A stretch of 32,000 bases of DNA from Candidatus Hermodarchaeota archaeon (lineage in GTDB: Archaea > Asgardarchaeota > Heimdallarchaeia > Hodarchaeales > Hodarchaeaceae), in NCBI GenBank assembly GCA_048886185.1, contig JBHLKY010000013.1:30001-62000 (forward strand), given 5' to 3'. The notes beneath the pieces are model-generated. The model was not told where the DNA came from. It did not search any database and saw nothing but the letters and a program-made list of their open reading frames with translations. Shown piece by piece: positions 2,488 to 30,664 of this stretch (within the stretch, counting starts at the first letter, position 1; the number at the start of each line of letters is the position of its first letter). A program made the translations under genes and the position numbers.

Positions 2488-2546
2488 CATTCAACTAATT
2501 AAATAAGGTTATTGGAATAATAAAATTACTAGGAGTGTTATTTTTA

Positions 2547-5500
2547 ATGTCAAATCCTGAAAGTGAATATTCATTATCTAAAAATGAGAATAAACTATTT
2601 ACATCATTAGTAATGTTTGGTGGCCAGACAAAACAGGAATTATTACTCACAGCAGATTTACATGGTGAGAAAGCTGAACAGGCAATTTCAATGTTGCTTA
2701 GCAAAGGATTTATTCAGCTAGATGAGGAAACGGGAATCTTTACACAGTCCCTTCCTCTCCCAAATATTATAGCTTTATTAAAAGAGAGTTCAACAAAAAT
2801 TGAAAATATTAAAAAGGATCAATCAGAGTTATTTCAAGAATATCGAAAATCAACTGGTGAGAACTTAGAAAATCTTCGTGAATCCCTTGAAACGCAATTC
2901 GAGGAATTTAAGGTTTCTAGCAATACGTTACAAACATCCTTGAAAGAAAAATTTGATGAAACGGAACACCAGCGAGCAAAACAGACCGAAGAGCTTGCAG
3001 AAGCACTCATATCATCGTTTTCTACGAGTTCATCCAATCTCCAAACTGAAGTTCATACCACCTTATCTTCTGAGTCCTCATCTTTTGAAAAAGAGTGGAT
3101 TAAGGCTCTTGATGGTTTTCAAAGCATACCTGAAACAGGAACACGAACCTTAAAGGCATCCATTGTAAAATATGAAAGAGAAATATCTGAAATCATCAAA
3201 TCCGCTGTTAAGCAAATATCTTCTATTCAATCTCAACTTTCAGATGTTATAACCGCCATTGAAGTGGAGTCTACAAGTCAAGTTCAGGAATTTTTTATTA
3301 ATACAGAAACTTTTGCGGAGGATTTCAAAACAAACCTTAATACAGGCTTACATGAAACTTGGAAACAAGAAAAAGAATTTTTAAATGAAATTCGTAAGAT
3401 GGTACAAGTTACTTTGGGAAAGGAGATAATTAAAGCCCTAGAGGCGGTAGTAAATAATTTAGCGAAGGAGATAGATGAAGAAATCAATGAGGCTATTATA
3501 GAGGTTAAAAAACAAACCGATACTGCTATAACAACCAGTTCAAACCAAATAAAATCTGAGTTCAATGAGTTTGTGGAAAATTCATCCGAATTAATTCAGG
3601 AACAAAGAACTTCTTTAGACGTTTTAAATACAGAGCTCACGAAATTAACTTCTGAAAAAAAATTAGCAACAATTTCTGATACCTTCAAGCGACAATTACA
3701 AGCATATCTATCTACTGATTTAAATACATTAGAAACAAATTATCGTCGTGTACAAAAAGCAACAACTGATATTATGGAAGAAATTCGGCGTGATGCGAAA
3801 AATGGGTTACTGAAACAAATAAAAAATTTTGAAGAACTTATTAACTCATTTAATATGGTAATTGAGAAATCAATTGCACGAAAAGACATGGATGTAATAC
3901 AATTTCAACAATTATCACAATCAATTGTGCAGTTACTTGGAAATTTATTAATTTCAATTCCTATGAAATCAAATAACTTTAAAGCTACATTAAGAAACTC
4001 TATATACAAATCTATTGAAGAACTCAAAAATGCAAAGGATAAATCATCTTTAGACCCTGTTAAAGATATTTATGACTCTTTAACAAGCACTCAGAAACGA
4101 ATTGAAACATCATTCCAAGAAGCTCTGGAAGAAAGTCAGAATGAAATTCAAAAGGTAATTAGCTCTACAACCCAACTAGGCAATACAGTTTCAAGCCTTC
4201 AAGAATCTTATTTAGAAAAAATTGAGCATCGATTTGAACAAAGAGCCAAAGTTATGAACACAGAGCTAGAAGCTATCGCTCGTAATTTCCAACAAGTCAT
4301 AAAGACAATAGAAGGTGGATTTAATGATATATCACAACAATTATCTTCTGAAAATATTGTCTCAAATCTTGAATCATCACTTCAAACTTCAGTTTCTCAA
4401 CTAAAAAATGATGTTGATCTTACTTTCAGCCAAAATCAAAAGGACTCAAGTGATTACATAACACAATTAGATTCAACTTTTCAAACACATCTAGATCGAA
4501 CTCTTGATGTCATTAAAGAGGGTTTCAGTCAGATAAAGGAGGAGTTCAGTCTAGAATTAGAGAAGCAACTGAAACAAATAGAAACAAATAATGAAAATCA
4601 GCAAAATAACCTGATTTCTGCAATTGATATATTTTCTGGTCAAAACGTGGAACAATTTACTAAGTTTTCGGCTAATATTGCTAAAACACTCGAAGACAGT
4701 CATAAAATTGTAACTGATTTCATCGCTGAAAGTCATCGGACGACATCTGAAGTTGTTGAATTACAAAAGGCGAATATTGATAAGTATCAAGAGAAAGGAA
4801 TTAATGATATTTTATCTTTCGTTAATCAAATAGAATCCGAAGTTTCCTCTCAGAATAAGAAAGTTAAAGATGCCATGGAGGAACTTGAAGGTTATTATAG
4901 TGGTTATTCGGACTCTACTTATGGGGAAGTTTCTAATTTATTACGTCAAGTTCAGGAAAGTGGAGACAGGTTATCATCATTAGTGACTGATTCCTTACAG
5001 AGTGCGACGGAAGATCTAGAGAAGTTAACAGAAGACATCGATCTATATTATACAGACTCCCTAGCTGACTTAGAAAATCAGATAGGCGTTACCTCGGGTT
5101 TTGTTACGTCCGAGATCGAAAATTCTGTTAAAACTATTCAGGAAGAAGTGGAGACTCTGAAAACTGATCTTATTGATGCTTTAGAGGAGTTAGGTAATGG
5201 AATAAAAGATTTTATTGCACGTCAAGATCAGGAATTCCAAATAAAAACTCCAGAACAAGCTCAAGAGTTTTCGCAACTTTTTGATGATTTAATTCAGGAA
5301 CGATCACGTATAAATAATGAATTGGAGGATAATACGGAGGGGATGTTAACAAAACTCGTGGAGGACTGGAATAAACAGATGGAAAAGAGTAAGGAAATGT
5401 TACAGGATGTCTTAAACTCTATGGATAAAGCTATTGAATCAAATCTCGAGAATCTGGAGGTCATCGTTAAGACTAATGTTGAACAGGCTATTCAATCTTT

Positions 5501-6725
5501 CAATAGTATTCTTGACCTTGGATCTTCAAAAGAAGACATCCTAGGGTTAGGTGAAATCCAGACGAAAGTTAAACTTGCAAATAAGCGATTAAAATCAGCA
5601 ATATCCGATAGTTTAAATTCACATATCGAGCAGCTTGACCAACAATTGATACCAGAACTAGTTACATCATATGAAGCTGCCCACACCCAAACTGAAGAAG
5701 ATCTTTCCTCTTATCTAGAAGATTTAGGAGATTTAATTTCTAGCTCACAAACAACATTCACAAATCAGTTGCATAAATATTTGAAAGAAGAACGTCAGAC
5801 TCTTAATTTTTCTGAAATGAAAAATGAATTAAATGAGATTTTGCAAGGTTTTTCACAATCTACGACCGAAGATATTGAATCAATATCATTAAACTTAACT
5901 GATAGCATTCAGATGACTATTAAAGAAGTTGAAAAGTCACGAACACAAATAATTGATATGTTTTCTAATTTATCAACGATAATAGATGAACAGACAGCAA
6001 AATCTATCAATCAATTGAATAAATTCAAAGAAGAACTGTCACAAACTTTTGATACAACAAGCAAGGAGTTTAAAAAAGATCTTTTAGTGAATCTTGACTC
6101 GTATAACAATGACCTCAATAAAACTTCACTTGAACTCACAGGAAAAGCCAATCAAATTACTCAAGCAATTACAGAAGAAGCTGATAACCAAATCTCACAA
6201 GTACTAGATATCTCTCGTGAACTGCATGATAATTTAGCAAATTCAAATAGTCAACATATTGAGACCTTAGAAGCTTTTACTACAGAGCTTTCCAATGTTA
6301 AGCCCGTAGGGTCTATACGTTTAGTCAAACTAACTACTGATGAGGCAAAAAATGAATTTATTATGAATATGATAAGCGCGGCATCCAAACAAGTGACGAT
6401 TATGACATCGAATCCAACTTTCTTATCAGTGGCTGATCTAAAGACCATTCCTTCAGAAAAACGCATTTTCATAATTACAAACTTTGATTTTTCCAAAAAA
6501 GGTAAAAAATGGGTTGCAGAAGTTGGTAAACCAGTAAATATTAACTTTTATAAACTAAAAGCGAATAATATAACTGGAAATCTAGTAATTGGAGACAATA
6601 AATCTGTTCTAGTCCTTCCAAATTCATTAGGTATTACTAGCACAGATGAGAAACTCGTTTCATATTTCTCGGGCACCGCAGGCTTATTAAAAGGTGCTTC
6701 TCTTCAGTTAGAACCCAAAAAATAG
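2547..6725 (+). CDS. Giant TrmB-like protein: N-terminal winged HTH, about 1,170-aa helical/coiled-coil rod, C-terminal TrmB/PLD-like domain
   Basis: N-terminus LSKNENKLFTSLVMFGGQTKQEL...AISMLLSKGFIQ...LP fits the TrmB wHTH pattern. C-terminus EFIMNMISAASKQVTIMT...RIFIIT...LVIGDNKSVLV...GITSTDEKLVSYF fits the TrmB effector domain. The middle is rich in E/S/L/Q/K/T with almost no Pro or Gly. AGGAG at 2531-2535 favours ATG 2547 over GTG 2535. Confidence 0.8.
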   Translation: MSNPESEYSLSKNENKLFTSLVMFGGQTKQELLLTADLHGEKAEQAISMLLSKGFIQLDEETGIFTQSLPLPNIIALLKESSTKIENIKKDQSELFQEYRKSTGENLENLRESLETQFEEFKVSSNTLQTSLKEKFDETEHQRAKQTEELAEALISSFSTSSSNLQTEVHTTLSSESSSFEKEWIKALDGFQSIPETGTRTLKASIVKYEREISEIIKSAVKQISSIQSQLSDVITAIEVESTSQVQEFFINTETFAEDFKTNLNTGLHETWKQEKEFLNEIRKMVQVTLGKEIIKALEAVVNNLAKEIDEEINEAIIEVKKQTDTAITTSSNQIKSEFNEFVENSSELIQEQRTSLDVLNTELTKLTSEKKLATISDTFKRQLQAYLSTDLNTLETNYRRVQKATTDIMEEIRRDAKNGLLKQIKNFEELINSFNMVIEKSIARKDMDVIQFQQLSQSIVQLLGNLLISIPMKSNNFKATLRNSIYKSIEELKNAKDKSSLDPVKDIYDSLTSTQKRIETSFQEALEESQNEIQKVISSTTQLGNTVSSLQESYLEKIEHRFEQRAKVMNTELEAIARNFQQVIKTIEGGFNDISQQLSSENIVSNLESSLQTSVSQLKNDVDLTFSQNQKDSSDYITQLDSTFQTHLDRTLDVIKEGFSQIKEEFSLELEKQLKQIETNNENQQNNLISAIDIFSGQNVEQFTKFSANIAKTLEDSHKIVTDFIAESHRTTSEVVELQKANIDKYQEKGINDILSFVNQIESEVSSQNKKVKDAMEELEGYYSGYSDSTYGEVSNLLRQVQESGDRLSSLVTDSLQSATEDLEKLTEDIDLYYTDSLADLENQIGVTSGFVTSEIENSVKTIQEEVETLKTDLIDALEELGNGIKDFIARQDQEFQIKTPEQAQEFSQLFDDLIQERSRINNELEDNTEGMLTKLVEDWNKQMEKSKEMLQDVLNSMDKAIESNLENLEVIVKTNVEQAIQSFNSILDLGSSKEDILGLGEIQTKVKLANKRLKSAISDSLNSHIEQLDQQLIPELVTSYEAAHTQTEEDLSSYLEDLGDLISSSQTTFTNQLHKYLKEERQTLNFSEMKNELNEILQGFSQSTTEDIESISLNLTDSIQMTIKEVEKSRTQIIDMFSNLSTIIDEQTAKSINQLNKFKEELSQTFDTTSKEFKKDLLVNLDSYNNDLNKTSLELTGKANQITQAITEEADNQISQVLDISRELHDNLANSNSQHIETLEAFTTELSNVKPVGSIRLVKLTTDEAKNEFIMNMISAASKQVTIMTSNPTFLSVADLKTIPSEKRIFIITNFDFSKKGKKWVAEVGKPVNINFYKLKANNITGNLVIGDNKSVLVLPNSLGITSTDEKLVSYFSGTAGLLKGASLQLEPKK

Positions 6726-6748: not shown

Positions 6749-8599
6749 TTAAATAGTTACTAATCCTAGTAATCCTGATCTCTCTAAAGTTTGTTTGTTG
6801 ACCATCCCTTTTAGAGTCAATCCCTTTCGTGAATAATACTTTGTAACCAATTCTTCGTGATTTTTAAAAAAATCCTGTCTTTTTTTAAGGAATATCGCAT
6901 AACAATCTTCATCTCGTGTCATACCCATCCGTGTATTGAAGATTCGTTCTAAAAGAGTTATGCGATTTCCAATTTCTAATAATTTCTTGAAATTCAGGTT
7001 TTCATCAAATACAGCTTTGAGAAGGGATAATAAGGGATTTAATTCTAATCCCCGGCCACTAATTAATAGGTCTGGTAAAAGGTGTACAAGATGATTCTGA
7101 AAATTTTGGTGTAACCAATTGAATCTCTTACGAAATTTTAGAAAAAAAGGAATGTATCTAGAACAGAGCACTAGAGAATCAAGGACTGCGATTAGATTTT
7201 CAAACAATATGATTGCTTCGACTTTTCCTCTCTTGGAAATTGGATTGAGTTTGAAAGGGAGACCTAGAAGCTCGGGGAAGATCATATAATTTGTACGAAA
7301 ACTATTAGCTGCATAAGGGGAAATACCTATAGCTAAACTTTGACCTACAATATTAGGATAGTAATACATCCCTCCCATCTGGTTTTTAATCATGGGAGAT
7401 GGTTCACTAGTTTGTTGATAGAGATATATTTCTCCTCGGGATAACTGATCTCCTAATTCTTCCCTTTGAATGATTTTTTTAATCAACGAATAGATTTTTG
7501 GATTATTCCATTCAAATCCAAGATTAATGTCTAATAGTTTTCTCCTGTCTTCTTGGATGTTGAACAGTGATGCAAGTGCAGCTCCAGTGGAAAGGGGATC
7601 TAAGGCGTCCTTATCACAGGCTTCAATAGCTTTTTGTATTTTCTCTATCTCCACAATCTTCAAATTTGGCCCTAATGACACAAAACTCTGGTATGAATTA
7701 CGTTGACATTGAACAGGGCACTGCCAACACTTAAGCGAATCTTCATAACCATTAAAGGAAGAGATTTTCTCTGGAGATAATTGTAATAAGCGAGAACAAT
7801 TTTTAGCTGGAAGAACAGAATTTTTAATCACTGAAAAAATTGTTGAAAAGGTACCACGGTTATGTAACATTTTAAACCAAGAAGTTTCTTCAAGAGAGTG
7901 CTTAAAGTGCTCAATAAAATCTTGGGAAAGGCCATTCAAATCTTTAATTTTGGGAGGATCTGTAATAACTATGGCTTTGATGTTTTTTGATGCTAGAACT
8001 GCTCCTAATCCTCCACGACGAAAAAAATGTACTTGATCAATCGCTACGCCTGCAAAAGAAACTTGATTTACCGCTGATAATCCTGTTGTAGCAATAGAAG
8101 CATTAACACCATGTTTCGTTCGTAATAATTCGTCAGTTTCAGAAACTGATTTCTTCCAAAATGGATCAGCATCCTCGAGGGTTATATCAGAAAATTCATC
8201 TATCAGGATATACTTGGGAGTTTTGGCACATCCTGATATTTGAAAAAAGTTCATTCCAACATGAGCTAAACTTGCACCGAATCGTCCTGTTGCTACTGAA
8301 GTAAATAAGGTATTAGTCTGAGGAGATTTAAATGTGGCAACAATCATACCAGATGAGGGAAATAATGTTCCAGTAAGAATTCCAGTTCCAAAAATTACCA
8401 CATTATCAGCTCCACGTGGACTAGCATCTGTAGGAATTGATTGATAACTGAGATAAACCGTGATTCCCCTTCCCCCTAGAAAGTTTTCCACTACTCTTGA
8501 CTCGATTGGTATTTTAGGTGAAACTTCTTCTTCAGTTAGATCAAGTGTAACAATTTGTGGGTTCCATGTTTTTAACATTTTTTGGCTGCTCCTTGCCAT
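6749..8599 (-). CDS. Aldehyde:ferredoxin oxidoreductase (AOR) family protein, divergent
   Basis: Motifs FLGGRG, DNVVIFGTGILTG, KSPQT, RRGGLGAVLASKNIKAIV, CWQCPVQC (CxxCxxxC), CDKDALDPLSTG, DSLVLC and ERIFNTRMG. The EYE and GACH motifs are not recognisable. Confidence 0.88.
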   Translation of the reverse strand: MARSSQKMLKTWNPQIVTLDLTEEEVSPKIPIESRVVENFLGGRGITVYLSYQSIPTDASPRGADNVVIFGTGILTGTLFPSSGMIVATFKSPQTNTLFTSVATGRFGASLAHVGMNFFQISGCAKTPKYILIDEFSDITLEDADPFWKKSVSETDELLRTKHGVNASIATTGLSAVNQVSFAGVAIDQVHFFRRGGLGAVLASKNIKAIVITDPPKIKDLNGLSQDFIEHFKHSLEETSWFKMLHNRGTFSTIFSVIKNSVLPAKNCSRLLQLSPEKISSFNGYEDSLKCWQCPVQCQRNSYQSFVSLGPNLKIVEIEKIQKAIEACDKDALDPLSTGAALASLFNIQEDRRKLLDINLGFEWNNPKIYSLIKKIIQREELGDQLSRGEIYLYQQTSEPSPMIKNQMGGMYYYPNIVGQSLAIGISPYAANSFRTNYMIFPELLGLPFKLNPISKRGKVEAIILFENLIAVLDSLVLCSRYIPFFLKFRKRFNWLHQNFQNHLVHLLPDLLISGRGLELNPLLSLLKAVFDENLNFKKLLEIGNRITLLERIFNTRMGMTRDEDCYAIFLKKRQDFFKNHEELVTKYYSRKGLTLKGMVNKQTLERSGLLGLVTI

Positions 8600-8611: not shown

Positions 8612-10069
8612 TTAAATCAGATGCACATACTTCAAGGTAAACTGCCTTTTTAAACAAGATATATCCATAATATTTGTGCCAACAACTTCATCATTGTAAA
8701 GAAAAAGTTCGAGAAGTCGTGCTATAACGATAGAATCACAGGACTCACGTGATTGATCCCTGAAATCCCATAAAGATAAGTACCACTTCTCCTCCTGAAA
8801 TTGCTTTCTATCAATCATACAATCTTGTTTTTCAAGCTTAGTTTTGCTTTTATAAATGAATTTTCCTTTTTGAAATACTAAAACTTCATAGTAGCAATGA
8901 TTAAAGATAACTGTTGAGTTGAATTTGGTGACAACCTCCCAGTTTCCTACAGGTTGATGTTGAACGGTGATTTTATCACGTAATCTTAATCCATGATTCA
9001 TAACATAATCAAATAGATGATTAAGAGTTAATAAATTTTCTGAATCACTCAATGAGTCATAGAGGATCACCAAAATACGACCAGGAAATAATTCATTAAG
9101 AGTTTCTGAAAAATTCGTGTTGAGAATATTCCGAGTTGTATTTCGGCAGTCTAAAAGCAATAAATGGTGTTTATAATTATTATCGATAGAATTGTACTCT
9201 TTCAATGCTTGGGGCAATAATGAATGATCAAGAGAATGGCTTATATTACTTTTTTCTTCTTCTGAATCTACTTCTGGCAGATGAATGATAGTTAATTGAT
9301 CTACATTGAAGTAACTAGTTAAATTTCCAGAAGTAAAACCTGATTTTTTGCGAATTATAGGTATTAAGTCTTCCACAATCTCTATTCCAATTGAATGACG
9401 TTTCATCTCCCTTGCAACTTTCATTGTTGTTCCTGATCCAAGAAACGGATCATAAATCCATGAACCCTTGCGAGAAAAGATTTCAATAAGTCTTTTAGGA
9501 AGTTCATCTGGGAAAGCAGCAACATCCTTTTCAAGACGGCCTTTCAAAGGTAAGACATTCGTTATCTCCCAAATATCATCAATTTGAATGTTTTTATTAC
9601 TAGGAAGATGCAAAGAGAGTGGTTTCTGGAAGATAAGAATATTCTCAATTAAGTTGTCTGGATAATAGTACATTGGATAGGGATTTTGTAATAAGACCCC
9701 ACTTCGTCTACTGATACGAATATATCCTTCTGGTTTCCTCCATACGATCCTCCCTTTCAATTTATAACCTATACTAGAGAATATCTTAATGATATCAGAG
9801 ATAATTGGGTACTTGATGCCCTTTACAAGCATATCATCAATATTTAAACCTACGATCCCTCCAATAGTTAATGCTTCGAAACTAAGCTCCCCAAATCTAG
9901 CAATCATCTCTAAGAACGTCTCATAATTCTGGAAAAGTTCCCTATAATCAAAAGGGGCATTAAAATATGGTGGTGAGGTCACTAAAAGATCAAAAGCTGG
10001 ATATTCAAGAATCTGTTTCGCTTTTGTGCAGTCTCCAATTAGGAGAAGATGTTTTGTGATCGTGATCAT
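8612..10069 (-). CDS. Beta-class (N4-C/N6-A) DNA methyltransferase with a degenerate second MTase-like domain
   Basis: LLIGDC...DLLVTSPPYFN (motif IV) precedes IYDPFLGSGTT...IGIEI (motif I), which is beta order. The C-terminal 185 aa repeat the same scaffold without the catalytic motifs. Confidence 0.9.
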   Translation of the reverse strand: MITITKHLLLIGDCTKAKQILEYPAFDLLVTSPPYFNAPFDYRELFQNYETFLEMIARFGELSFEALTIGGIVGLNIDDMLVKGIKYPIISDIIKIFSSIGYKLKGRIVWRKPEGYIRISRRSGVLLQNPYPMYYYPDNLIENILIFQKPLSLHLPSNKNIQIDDIWEITNVLPLKGRLEKDVAAFPDELPKRLIEIFSRKGSWIYDPFLGSGTTMKVAREMKRHSIGIEIVEDLIPIIRKKSGFTSGNLTSYFNVDQLTIIHLPEVDSEEEKSNISHSLDHSLLPQALKEYNSIDNNYKHHLLLLDCRNTTRNILNTNFSETLNELFPGRILVILYDSLSDSENLLTLNHLFDYVMNHGLRLRDKITVQHQPVGNWEVVTKFNSTVIFNHCYYEVLVFQKGKFIYKSKTKLEKQDCMIDRKQFQEEKWYLSLWDFRDQSRESCDSIVIARLLELFLYNDEVVGTNIMDISCLKRQFTLKYVHLI

Positions 10070-10272: not shown

Positions 10273-11541
10273 ATGGAGTTAAAACAACCAGATAGTGCGC
10301 GTAATTCAACTACTGCCAAACCTAGTTTTATGGTTGACTTTGCTAATGCTTCTCTTTCAACAATATTTTCAATTTTGTTGTGGATCCTATTCTTCCAGTA
10401 CTATCCAGTATTGGGAAGCATTATCCCGCTTTTCTTTGGTATCTCTGTTGGAACTCTAGTTGGGACAGTGATAATAATTTTCTTCACTTATTCGATCCTT
10501 GTCCGGTGGTTTGAAATCTGGGCATATCAAATCGCTTCGTGGCGTTATCCCATCCCATACATGAACTATCGTACAAAGTGTCCATTTCTTCAGCGACGAT
10601 ATCTTACCTTTTCCTGCAGAGCTGAACAAATCGCTCCCTTTGATATCCCAGCCTTTGAGAAATGTCACAAATCATTAATGTGGGAAGCATGTTGGCCTGA
10701 GCGAATTCCTTCAATATTACAAGTGTATGATGAGGCGCCTCCAAATGTAAAGCAGCAGTATTCTTTTATTCTTGCAGCAATGAAAGAAATCGCTTCACCT
10801 GCAGCAGACAAAATGTATGAAGCTCTAACTTCTGAAACCTTAGAAATCCAGGCAAGAGTATCTGCAGGATATGCATTAGAAGAAATGAAAAACGAGAGAG
10901 GAATTGAACCATTAATTTCAATGCTTGGACAATTCGATCAACGTACAAACCAAATGATCCAAGCAATTTTAGTCCGTTATAAAGATATGGCGATGCCCTA
11001 TCTAATTAGTGCAATTCAGAATTGTGAGGGCGATATGCAGTGTGGGACAATCGTTGAAATATTAGGGAAGATAAAACATGATGATAGTGTTGCTACGATA
11101 GAAAATTTATTAACAAACGAAGAAACAGGGGAAGTTACGAGGTTACAATCAATTTATGCATTACAAGAAGTTGGGAGTGAGAAAGCAATGAAGGCTCTTG
11201 TTTCATATTTTAAATCCGCGCCTGCAGAGGAGCATGATATTATTAAAGATGTGTTATTGAATCAAAAATTGATAAGCTTCCCATTATTGATAGAGCTCTT
11301 ATCAGATCCAGAAACTCCAGAAGATTACTATACACGTATTGGTGATATTCTTGCAGATGTTGATGCAATAACATATGATAGATTTTTCACAAAACTCGGT
11401 GAATTAAAAGGATTGGATACCGTTCACAAATTAGCAACAATCTTAAAGGAAAACACTCCAGAAGAAGAAGAATTTCAAAGATTACATGAAGTACTTTCAA
11501 AGCATCAAACTTCTATCCAATCTGAAAATTCAATGGACTGA
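10273..11541 (+). CDS. Membrane-anchored HEAT (PBS-lyase-type) repeat protein with a Cys-rich linker
   Basis: Two hydrophobic segments at about aa 26-46 and 50-76, then CX11CX15CX8C, then HEAT-like repeats (ARVSAGYALEEM..ERGIEPLISML; IVEILGKIKHDDSVATIENLL; TRLQSIYALQEVGSEKAMKALVSYF). Confidence 0.8.
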   Translation: MELKQPDSARNSTTAKPSFMVDFANASLSTIFSILLWILFFQYYPVLGSIIPLFFGISVGTLVGTVIIIFFTYSILVRWFEIWAYQIASWRYPIPYMNYRTKCPFLQRRYLTFSCRAEQIAPFDIPAFEKCHKSLMWEACWPERIPSILQVYDEAPPNVKQQYSFILAAMKEIASPAADKMYEALTSETLEIQARVSAGYALEEMKNERGIEPLISMLGQFDQRTNQMIQAILVRYKDMAMPYLISAIQNCEGDMQCGTIVEILGKIKHDDSVATIENLLTNEETGEVTRLQSIYALQEVGSEKAMKALVSYFKSAPAEEHDIIKDVLLNQKLISFPLLIELLSDPETPEDYYTRIGDILADVDAITYDRFFTKLGELKGLDTVHKLATILKENTPEEEEFQRLHEVLSKHQTSIQSENSMD

Positions 11542-29638: not shown

Positions 29639-30664
29639 ATGCTCTTTGAAGGGATAATACTGACAGTAATGGCTGATTCAGGGCCAATGACTGAAATTAA
29701 TCTCTCAAAGTTAGATGATACAAGTGCAATGAAATTAAGTATCAGTTTAATGACCGCACTCGGTTTAGGAGAGAGCCAAGACCAATTAAACCAGCTTCAT
29801 GGTTCATTCCCAGTTCCAGGGCGCAAAGAATTATCCTTAGCTTATCCATTCTTAGTAGCTTCTACTACATCAGCTGATCCTCGTATTCAAGCAGCTGGAC
29901 GATATTGTACGCTTTTCCTCCTATTTTCTCGGGAGACAAAGCAGAAAGTGCTAGCAAGTTATGAAATAATTGAACAAATAATTTCAAGAACACTCAAATC
30001 GGTAACCCAGCAAGCTGACTTGACAACAGGATTTATAAAGGAGATATATACGAATATTGAAAGTGTGGTGGCAACTAGGGAAGGTACAAGCACTCCTGCA
30101 GCCATTAAACGGTCTACAGCAGATTTAGAGAGAATTAAAGTTGTACACGATCGGTCTCAAATCCTATCTGCCATTATTCGTGAAATAACTCAGATTCAGA
30201 CATCTATCCAATCATTATTAGACGAACTAATGGTTTTCACAGATACCCCTATTCTAGAGGGATCTTATTACATGCGTCCAATTATTAAAGCAGAAGATTT
30301 TATTAAAATATTACCCCAAATCTCTCGATATGAGAAAATACTTGCAAAGTTAGATGGGGAAGATAAAGAAACAGTAAGAGAGATCGTTGAACCTTCTATA
30401 CTTGTAAGAATTGGGAATCTTTTTTATTGGAAAGCACTAAGTTCTCAACAGATGTTAGAATATGAGAAAGCAATTGAGTTCTATTTACGAGCAAATCAGC
30501 TGAAAGACGACTCAATATTGTATCTTACCATTGGATCTATTTACCGAAGAATGGATCGGTCTGGTGATGCAAAAGATTGGATTGAGGGAGGATTTTCACG
30601 GATGAGAAATCGAAAGGAATCTATTCGAATTTCACGAAATATGCTCTTTGGGGATGTCCGCTAA
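29639..30664 (+). CDS. uDENN/longin-like N-terminal domain with C-terminal TPR repeats
   Basis: N-terminal EGIILTVMADSGP...LHGSFPVP...LAYPF...DPR...GRYCTLFLLF resembles the uDENN/folliculin-type longin pattern. C-terminal ILVRIGNLFY...YEKAIEFYLRANQL..DSILYLTIGSIYRRM..SGDAKDWI is TPR-like. Confidence 0.72.
   Translation: MLFEGIILTVMADSGPMTEINLSKLDDTSAMKLSISLMTALGLGESQDQLNQLHGSFPVPGRKELSLAYPFLVASTTSADPRIQAAGRYCTLFLLFSRETKQKVLASYEIIEQIISRTLKSVTQQADLTTGFIKEIYTNIESVVATREGTSTPAAIKRSTADLERIKVVHDRSQILSAIIREITQIQTSIQSLLDELMVFTDTPILEGSYYMRPIIKAEDFIKILPQISRYEKILAKLDGEDKETVREIVEPSILVRIGNLFYWKALSSQQMLEYEKAIEFYLRANQLKDDSILYLTIGSIYRRMDRSGDAKDWIEGGFSRMRNRKESIRISRNMLFGDVR

Follow-up and report, generated by a model that had tools for sequence, protein, structure and literature searches.

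Previous work has established that beta-class amino-methyltransferases (MTases), TTHA0409 of Thermus thermophilus among them, are dimers, and a division of labour between their subunits has been proposed (PMC7544214, PMC10406627). In the type III EcoP15I Mod dimer and in the CcrM homodimer one subunit recognises the target and the other methylates it (PMC7544214, PMC10406627), the subunits being identical and intact. In METTL3-METTL14, which makes N6-methyladenine (m6A) in RNA, and in the ciliate pairs MTA1-MTA9 and AMT1-AMT7, which make 6-methyladenine (6mA) in DNA, an active subunit is joined by a paralogous one with an eroded motif IV that aids substrate binding (PMC7544214). Here we describe an archaeal gene in which a comparable asymmetry is hard-wired in one chain. 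It lies on 32,000 nucleotides (the window; positions 30,001 to 62,000 of contig JBHLKY010000013.1, assembly GCA_048886185.1) of a Candidatus Hermodarchaeota archaeon of the Asgard family Hodarchaeaceae, where it occupies positions 8612 to 10069 of the minus strand and encodes a protein of 485 amino acids (P0001). These limits, taken from the list of open reading frames (ORFs) and the translation, are exactly those given in the preliminary description of the window, which had been made from the letters alone. Judging from profiles and structure models, we consider it probable that P0001 is a self-sufficient, solitary, single-chain pseudo-dimer of the beta class, with a live domain 1 and a dead domain 2.

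The closest described system is TTHA0409 (PDB 2ZIE, 2ZIF and 2ZIG), together with its cassette-borne relatives of about 283 amino acids. Like P0001, these proteins belong to PF01555 and to the same subfamily, and TTHA0409 is the best solved match for both domains; its motif IV is likewise SPPY, its recognition region is short and structured, and it forms a dimer in which a tenon residue takes part. TTHA0409 and its relatives are, however, single-domain homodimers, with a candidate nuclease beside the bacterial relatives, whereas P0001 is fused, has one dead copy and lacks a nuclease. The METTL3-METTL14 and MTA1-MTA9 pairs, which the preliminary description had invoked as eukaryotic analogues, combine an active with a motif-IV-eroded subunit as P0001 does, and have the same beta-class motif order and fold (Foldseek E 2e-5 to 4e-4 to domain 2). 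They are MT-A70 proteins formed by two polypeptides plus accessory subunits, whereas P0001 is a single-chain PF01555 protein in which no MT-A70 match was found, PF01555 being the sole Pfam family matched up to E 10. The analogy therefore stands for architecture and fold class and falls for the family. MT-A70 is reported to be essentially absent from Asgard genomes (PMC12695648), so that the eukaryotic pairs would be a parallel and not an ancestor.

Solitary MTases are also known among archaea, where persistent orphan enzymes, such as the haloarchaeal CTAG enzyme that makes N4-methylcytosine (m4C), have no nuclease, are conserved within a taxon and are mostly m4C type II enzymes (Anton et al. 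2023, PMC10609329). These are ordinary single-domain proteins, whereas P0001 carries a dead copy and is found in only part of its genus. Two amino-MTase domains in one chain occur in type IIS MTases (M.FokI, and the HinfI-like fusions M.MlyI, M.PleI and M.AlwI), in which both domains are active, each on one strand of an asymmetric site, and a nuclease lies alongside. For a single-chain active/inactive beta-class MTase, or for m4C in Asgard archaea, nothing relevant was found in the literature.

An intact domain and a degenerate copy in one chain

Domain 1 (amino acids 1-244; 9338 to 10069, minus strand, as are all parts of the gene given below) is an intact beta-class amino-MTase. A Pfam search with the whole protein matched N6_N4_Mtase (PF01555) at residues 27-240 (E 2e-34; 119.9 bits against a cut-off of 26.7), and a profile search against the PDB identified TTHA0409 as the closest solved relative of this domain (E 3.6e-20); the full-length model matches the same structure with a Foldseek E of 9e-14 and a template modelling (TM) score by target of 0.72. 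The two motifs previously assigned to this half were both located in its translation: the catalytic loop of motif IV, SPPY (32-35; 9965 to 9976), and motif I, DPFLGSGTT, for binding of S-adenosylmethionine (SAM; 207-215; 9425 to 9451), with SPPY N-terminal to FLGSG (209-213), which is the beta-class order. Across 31 full-length homologs, which are 48-70% identical to P0001 and share its start and layout, SPPY, NIDD, FQK, DPFLGSGTT and E230 are invariant, as are 94 of the 244 columns of the domain. Single-domain proteins matching domain 1 number about 6,000; the best of them are about 283 amino acids long and 50-55% identical to it, and among these the few with a named source are bacterial. Relative to the cassette enzymes, the stem of domain 1 in the tree is long (0.84 changes per column).

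Motif IV reads SPPY and not DPPY in all 31 homologs. The active site of N4CMT is SPPY (PMC10406627), and TTHA0409 has been called a putative N4-cytosine MTase (PMC5173035). SPPY represents a tendency and not a proof; m6A and m4C enzymes can be very similar (PMC10609329). Because of this motif, and because single-domain relatives occur in two-gene cassettes with a candidate nuclease, the product is likely m4C and the substrate likely double-stranded DNA.

Domain 1 is followed by a variable linker (245-299; 9173 to 9337) that has no invariant column among the homologs and a predicted local distance difference test score (pLDDT) below 50 at residues 270-279 of the AlphaFold2 model. The linker leads to domain 2 (300-485; 8615 to 9172), which profiles and fold identify as a degenerate, catalytically dead copy from the same TTHA0409-like subfamily. 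Residues 270-485 have no Pfam or NCBIfam match, and a BLASTP comparison of the two halves was not significant (best E 0.29), so that profiles were needed to confirm the repeat that had been aligned by eye. Comparison of the domain-1 and domain-2 alignments with hhalign gave an E of 3.8e-5 (probability 70.7%, 102 columns) and recovered the pairs KHLLLIGDC/KHHLLLLDC, GGIVGLN/GRILVIL, GYKLKGRI/GLRLRDKI and ILIFQKP/VLVFQKG; the last two were also recovered by MAFFT with single-domain relatives, along with IDDIW/YLSLW and RLIEIFSRKGSWI/RLLELFLYNDEVV. When 1.84 billion representatives were searched exhaustively by phmmer with domain 2 as the query, the matches comprised its own small family and the active single-domain PF01555 proteins P0123 (E 4e-5) and P0125 (E 3e-4). 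With a domain-2 profile, per-genome E values of 1e-16 to 1e-21 were obtained for single-domain SPPY MTases belonging to other Asgard families. The comparison of this profile with PDB sequences yielded only Sir4, at E 0.066, a chance match that was set aside.

The fold of domain 2 leads to the same subfamily. The preliminary description had named a lack of structural similarity to an MTase fold in this half as a finding that would refute it; the fold is present, and its closest solved structure is the one found for domain 1. With the AlphaFold2 model of domain 2 (pLDDT 82.7), the best PDB match in Foldseek was TTHA0409 (E 1.8e-8, TM 0.57), followed by M1.HpyAVI, M.RsrI, the MTA1 complex (MTA1c) and METTL3-METTL14, and the ESM Atlas model of residues 297-485 showed TM scores of 0.72-0.76 to ten PF01555 clusters. 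In sequence, domain 2 is about 30% identical to single-domain enzymes versus 21% to its own domain 1. Joint alignment with active enzymes defined four deletions. The largest, of 34 residues, takes out strand beta4 together with SPPY and the loop that follows, and a second removes 10 residues from the PMYYYPDNLL loop; the other two affect the AAFPDELP stretch (about 7 residues) and the DPFLGSG loop (7 residues). From this alignment and the translation, LLLLDCRN (9140 to 9163) stands at the site of strand beta4 and motif IV, and EVVGTNI (8669 to 8689) at that of motif I, with the FxGxG loop deleted. The earlier observation that domain 2 has neither motif IV nor FxGxG is confirmed, with the 34-residue gap at the one and EVVGTNI in place of DPFLGSGTT at the other, and with the four deletions the domain would therefore neither bind SAM in the usual way nor catalyse the transfer.

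Both domains are maintained. Mean pairwise identity among the 31 orthologs is 0.70 in domain 1, 0.29 in the linker and 0.53 in domain 2, and it rises to 0.68 in the segment of domain 2 that corresponds to the target-recognition region, which is about as highly conserved as the live domain. Lack of conservation of domain 2 in homologs, combined with full activity and specificity of domain 1 alone, had been named as an observation that would tell against the pseudo-dimer, and what is found is a conserved domain 2 in 31 of 31 full-length homologs, with no stop within the domain-2 match at 13 loci of the genus. Each domain forms a fully supported clade in the tree, and the inner branching of the two clades matches; the two domains were therefore joined before the family spread. 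Domain 2 could have arisen either by duplication in place or by fusion of two family members. The exhaustive phmmer search returned no stand-alone or split domain 2. Two candidates were discarded: P0121 (195 amino acids), which is the end of a gene cut by an assembly gap in genome G065, and P0122, a fragment of 107 amino acids. No PDB chain covers both domains, nor does any ESM Atlas cluster in a search of the Atlas that was not exhaustive (TM by query at most 0.50).

Predicted packing and the target-recognition region

The models support the pseudo-dimer put forward in the preliminary description: with high confidence they place the two domains against each other through equivalent elements. 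Both domains are confident in the full-length AlphaFold2 model (predicted TM score, pTM, 0.86; pLDDT 81.7). When the domains were given as separate chains with alignments, the interaction prediction score from aligned errors (ipSAE) was 0.89, and 0.00 in the best of three controls; of 80 solved complexes 58 attained that mark, as did 2 of 110 mismatched pairs. At least 93% of the contacts were common to the runs, and the pLDDT of the partner was at least 86. This two-chain result speaks for likeness to the solved dimers of the family, and not for binding itself. The equivalent elements in the interface are helix 86-98 of domain 1 and helix 345-357 of domain 2, strands 104-110 and 363-369, and the helix before motif I, around F198 in domain 1 and F456 in domain 2. 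Aligned positions that are in the interface on both sides number 28 versus 13 expected (p 4e-8, an approximate value, the positions not being independent), as predicted for a dimer with pseudo-two-fold symmetry.

A mortise-and-tenon joint, in which a tenon fits a hydrophobic socket of the partner, has been described for beta-class enzymes, with Ile163 as the tenon in TTHA0409 (PMC10406627). In domain 1 the candidate tenon is the mostly invariant PYPMYYYPDN loop (130-139; 9653 to 9682), which in the complex model touches L455 and F456 of domain 2 with an expected error of 0.5 Å. These residues are part of the RLLELFL helix (451-457; 8699 to 8719), the socket predicted for this loop from conservation and model contacts, whose R451, L455 and F456 are invariant in the 31 homologs and contact domain-1 residues 132-135. 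The HMMER alignment places the invariant PMYYYPDN part of the loop on the A-I-I stretch of TTHA0409, which, if the numbering corresponds, lies at or beside the published tenon. Domain 2 has lost its own tenon loop, which would make the joint one-way.

The stretch between FQK and W lies between motif VIII and motif I, the site of the target-recognition region in beta-class enzymes, and TTHA0409 has been described as having a structured region of this type (PMC5173035). It had been pointed out that domain 2 carries a longer segment here than domain 1. The difference in length was found as described (36 residues versus 21), although it does not stem from an insertion in domain 2: the stretch, which runs from FQKGKF to YLSLW in domain 2, has the same length in single-domain enzymes of bacteria and archaea, so the longer form is the ancestral state of the family and domain 1 has been shortened, 15 residues being missing from its segment (147-167; 9569 to 9631, from alignment with single-domain relatives). 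The segment retained in domain 2 (399-434; 8768 to 8875) is identical to four active bacterial enzymes at 19-21 of 36 residues (53-58%), compared with about 30% over the whole domain. The losses are thus complementary, catalytic motifs and tenon from domain 2 and part of the recognition region from domain 1, which argues that domain 2 is more than a prop.

Genomic context and distribution

The gene next downstream of the MTase, starting 12 nt after its stop codon, encodes an AOR-family protein (6749 to 8599, minus strand; Pfam AFOR_N and AFOR_C), and the neighbour on the other side is a HEAT-repeat gene; the earlier remark that no restriction nuclease is adjacent therefore agrees with the gene content. 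No cognate endonuclease of the kind that characterises type II restriction-modification (R-M) systems was found beside the MTase. In each of the four single-domain relatives whose flanks were read (P0059, P0086, P0110 and P0125), the MTase gene is succeeded by an ORF of 315-357 amino acids that overlaps or abuts it and has no Pfam match. Two of the four ORFs share 56% identity and have a PD-ExK-like motif at the end, as expected of a restriction endonuclease. Among single-domain Asgard relatives, two of seven have a neighbouring ORF of this type (355-360 amino acids). On sequence grounds, the cassette partner of about 350-360 amino acids that accompanies single-domain relatives in bacteria and some Asgard archaea is probably an uncharacterised PD-ExK restriction endonuclease. 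With P0126 as the query, this candidate nuclease family gave no match in the 22 genomes of the genus. Its members, which have no Pfam, NCBIfam or PDB match, were recorded at L029:6833-7882, L030:5833-6906, L039:3206-4273 and L034:416-1498.

In a survey of 400 genomes from the phylum, only the GTDB genus of the window has the two-domain form, which 12 of its 22 genomes carry. In the nine further loci with usable flanks the order of genes is the same in every case (DegT, YggS, a 1396-amino-acid protein, AOR, MTase), and the MTase has diverged about as much across loci (53-69% identity) as the AOR protein (53-72%). Synteny and divergence fit vertical descent, and not a mobile cassette. With its fixed slot and the lack of a nuclease the gene resembles the persistent orphans, yet it is present in little more than half of the genus. 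The AOR-family gene adjoins the MTase in all genomes that bear it and marks the syntenic slot, without being shown to be part of the system; a functional link between the two genes was considered and set aside, the AOR gene being kept in genomes that lack the MTase. What looks like a fragment in G065 results from the assembly gap mentioned above. G073 has two AOR-MTase pairs on contigs 8 and 216 (L017 and L021), each with its own AOR gene, 62% and 72% identical to that of the window, and this bin probably mixes two species.

As to the rest of the window, the G+C content is 33-37% throughout, i.e. AT-rich, and the genes other than the MTase are otherwise housekeeping. The 1396-amino-acid protein (2535 to 6725, plus strand) consists mostly of apolipoprotein-like helical repeats and is syntenic across the genus, with 38-70% identity. 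The HEAT-repeat protein (10273 to 11541, plus strand) has a hydrophobic N-terminal part, and its gene is divergent from that of the MTase; the ESM Atlas holds a cluster of 1,265 members in which PF01555 is fused to HEAT repeats. The public sequencing runs containing the DNA of the window are sediment metagenomes only, which may be its source, and no RNA run containing the stretch is listed among them.

Proposed mechanism, alternatives and meaning

On the simplest reading, the enzyme derives from a cassette MTase that lost its nuclease and underwent tandem duplication or fusion, after which one copy would have decayed to a non-catalytic partner. Domain 2 would stand in for the second homodimer subunit and use the same helix, strand and socket elements to dock on domain 1. 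Domain 1 would bind SAM and methylate the flipped base, while domain 2 would provide the partner surface and probably part of the DNA binding or recognition, a division of labour suggested by the loss of a segment from domain 1 and its retention under strong conservation in domain 2. The enzyme would mark the host genome rather than protect it against a cognate restriction enzyme, because no nuclease accompanies it and its chromosomal position is fixed.

Several points weigh against this reading. The activity of the enzyme, its substrate and the methylated base are deduced from sequence. The packing comes from structure predictors, which may recall the solved homodimers of the family, and the dimer-like geometry is derived only from the equivalence of interface elements. 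In the tree, whose backbone lacks resolution, a sister relationship of domains 1 and 2 is neither demonstrated nor rejected (approximately unbiased test, p-AU 0.33). In addition, the enzyme is dispensable in some lineages, since the slot is empty in at least two genomes, G058 and G064, where the AOR and HEAT genes are directly adjacent, and the gene is missing in G071, where other genes follow AOR. In the trees of the AOR and coiled-coil proteins, which are weakly resolved, G058 and G064 fall among the carriers and two changes of presence or absence are needed; loss in the line of G058 and G064 is the simpler reading, with weak support, as compared with gain. Finally, much of the domain-2 segment (404-433) is inside the predicted interface, and its conservation may reflect packing and not DNA reading.

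This last point is shared with an alternative that we hold to be unlikely, in which domain 2 would be a structural prop only, stabilising domain 1 in lieu of a second subunit and converting an obligate dimer into a monomer without any part in DNA binding or recognition, and specificity would reside wholly in domain 1. Most of the conserved residues of domain 2, those of 404-433 largely included, are indeed located in the predicted interface between the domains, and the catalytic subunit of CcrM itself reads the target strand (PMC10406627). However, the loss of 15 residues from domain 1, with the segment kept at 0.68 in domain 2, is the pattern expected if the function had moved, and non-catalytic partners aid substrate binding in EcoP15I, MTA1 and METTL3 complexes (PMC7544214). 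Recruitment of the fused enzyme to RNA, single-stranded DNA or another substrate after the nuclease was lost appears improbable to us. A change of role of this sort could leave a long stem followed by high conservation, as observed in domain 1 (0.84 changes per column, then 0.70), and some beta-class enzymes, such as M.EcoGII and METTL3, do act on RNA or single-stranded DNA (PMC7544214); yet the closest relatives (50-55% identity) are MTases of cassettes, and the gene shows no link to an RNA-binding domain or to a neighbour with a role in RNA processing, its slot neighbours being the AOR-family and HEAT-repeat genes.

It is very improbable, in our opinion, that P0001 is a functionless, decaying remnant of an R-M cassette or of a doubly active two-domain MTase like some of the type IIS enzymes. 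That several genomes of the genus lack the gene in this slot would agree with decay, as would the richness of the genome in PF01555 copies, some of them with stops. Against this, all 31 homologs are full-length and the 13 loci of the genus are free of stops in the domain-2 match, both domains are far more conserved than the linker and fold confidently, and the divergence of the gene follows that of the neighbouring housekeeping genes.

The PF01555 set of this organism is unusually large, with 37 matches in its 4.8-Mb genome, several of them with internal stops. One of the proteins, P0127 (816 amino acids; contig 33, L041:1829-4279), belongs to another subfamily and has the reverse layout, a degenerate N-terminal copy and an intact C-terminal one. 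The former scores 36.8 bits on its own, above the Pfam cut-off, and has DLSLYY at motif IV and DLSTNFGTS at motif I; the latter has DPPF and FCGSGTT. P0127 has 58 homologs of about 800 amino acids, all the named ones from Asgard archaea, and the degenerate motifs are degenerate throughout 10 aligned homologs. A protein of 571 amino acids encoded on contig 29 (L042:889-2604) is composed of two tandem permuted MTase copies, with motif I before motif IV, and has DIPMW and DVPYW as catalytic loops. The presence in this genome of at least two unrelated single-chain families, one live-dead (485 amino acids) and one dead-live (816 amino acids), raises the possibility, which we put forward tentatively, that Asgard archaea of the Hodarchaeales type have repeatedly converted obligately dimeric beta-class DNA MTases into hard-wired active/inactive pairs in which the dead copy would be a reader of sequence, strand or hemimethylated state.

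The proposal of Cheng, Blumenthal and colleagues that these enzymes are obligate dimers with split work has, as far as small type II enzymes are concerned, relied chiefly on dimers seen in crystals. A natural fusion with one subunit degraded to a non-catalytic partner would be an evolutionary experiment in support of it, and P0001 would also be a convenient test object, with one chain, one active site, natural genomes free of the gene, and a recognition-region segment on the dead half. Since domain 2 escapes both Pfam and NCBIfam, proteins of this kind are annotated as ordinary methyltransferases with an unexplained tail. The value of the finding would be higher if the recurrence across families were general and the dead copies proved to be readers. 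P0001 indicates that the active/inactive pairing of the eukaryotic m6A writers has arisen also in archaea, in a different family. If the wider reading of repeated conversion is true, these would be solitary, inherited genome-marking enzymes that follow the logic of METTL3-METTL14 and MTA1-MTA9 and that evolved independently in the closest archaeal relatives of eukaryotes.

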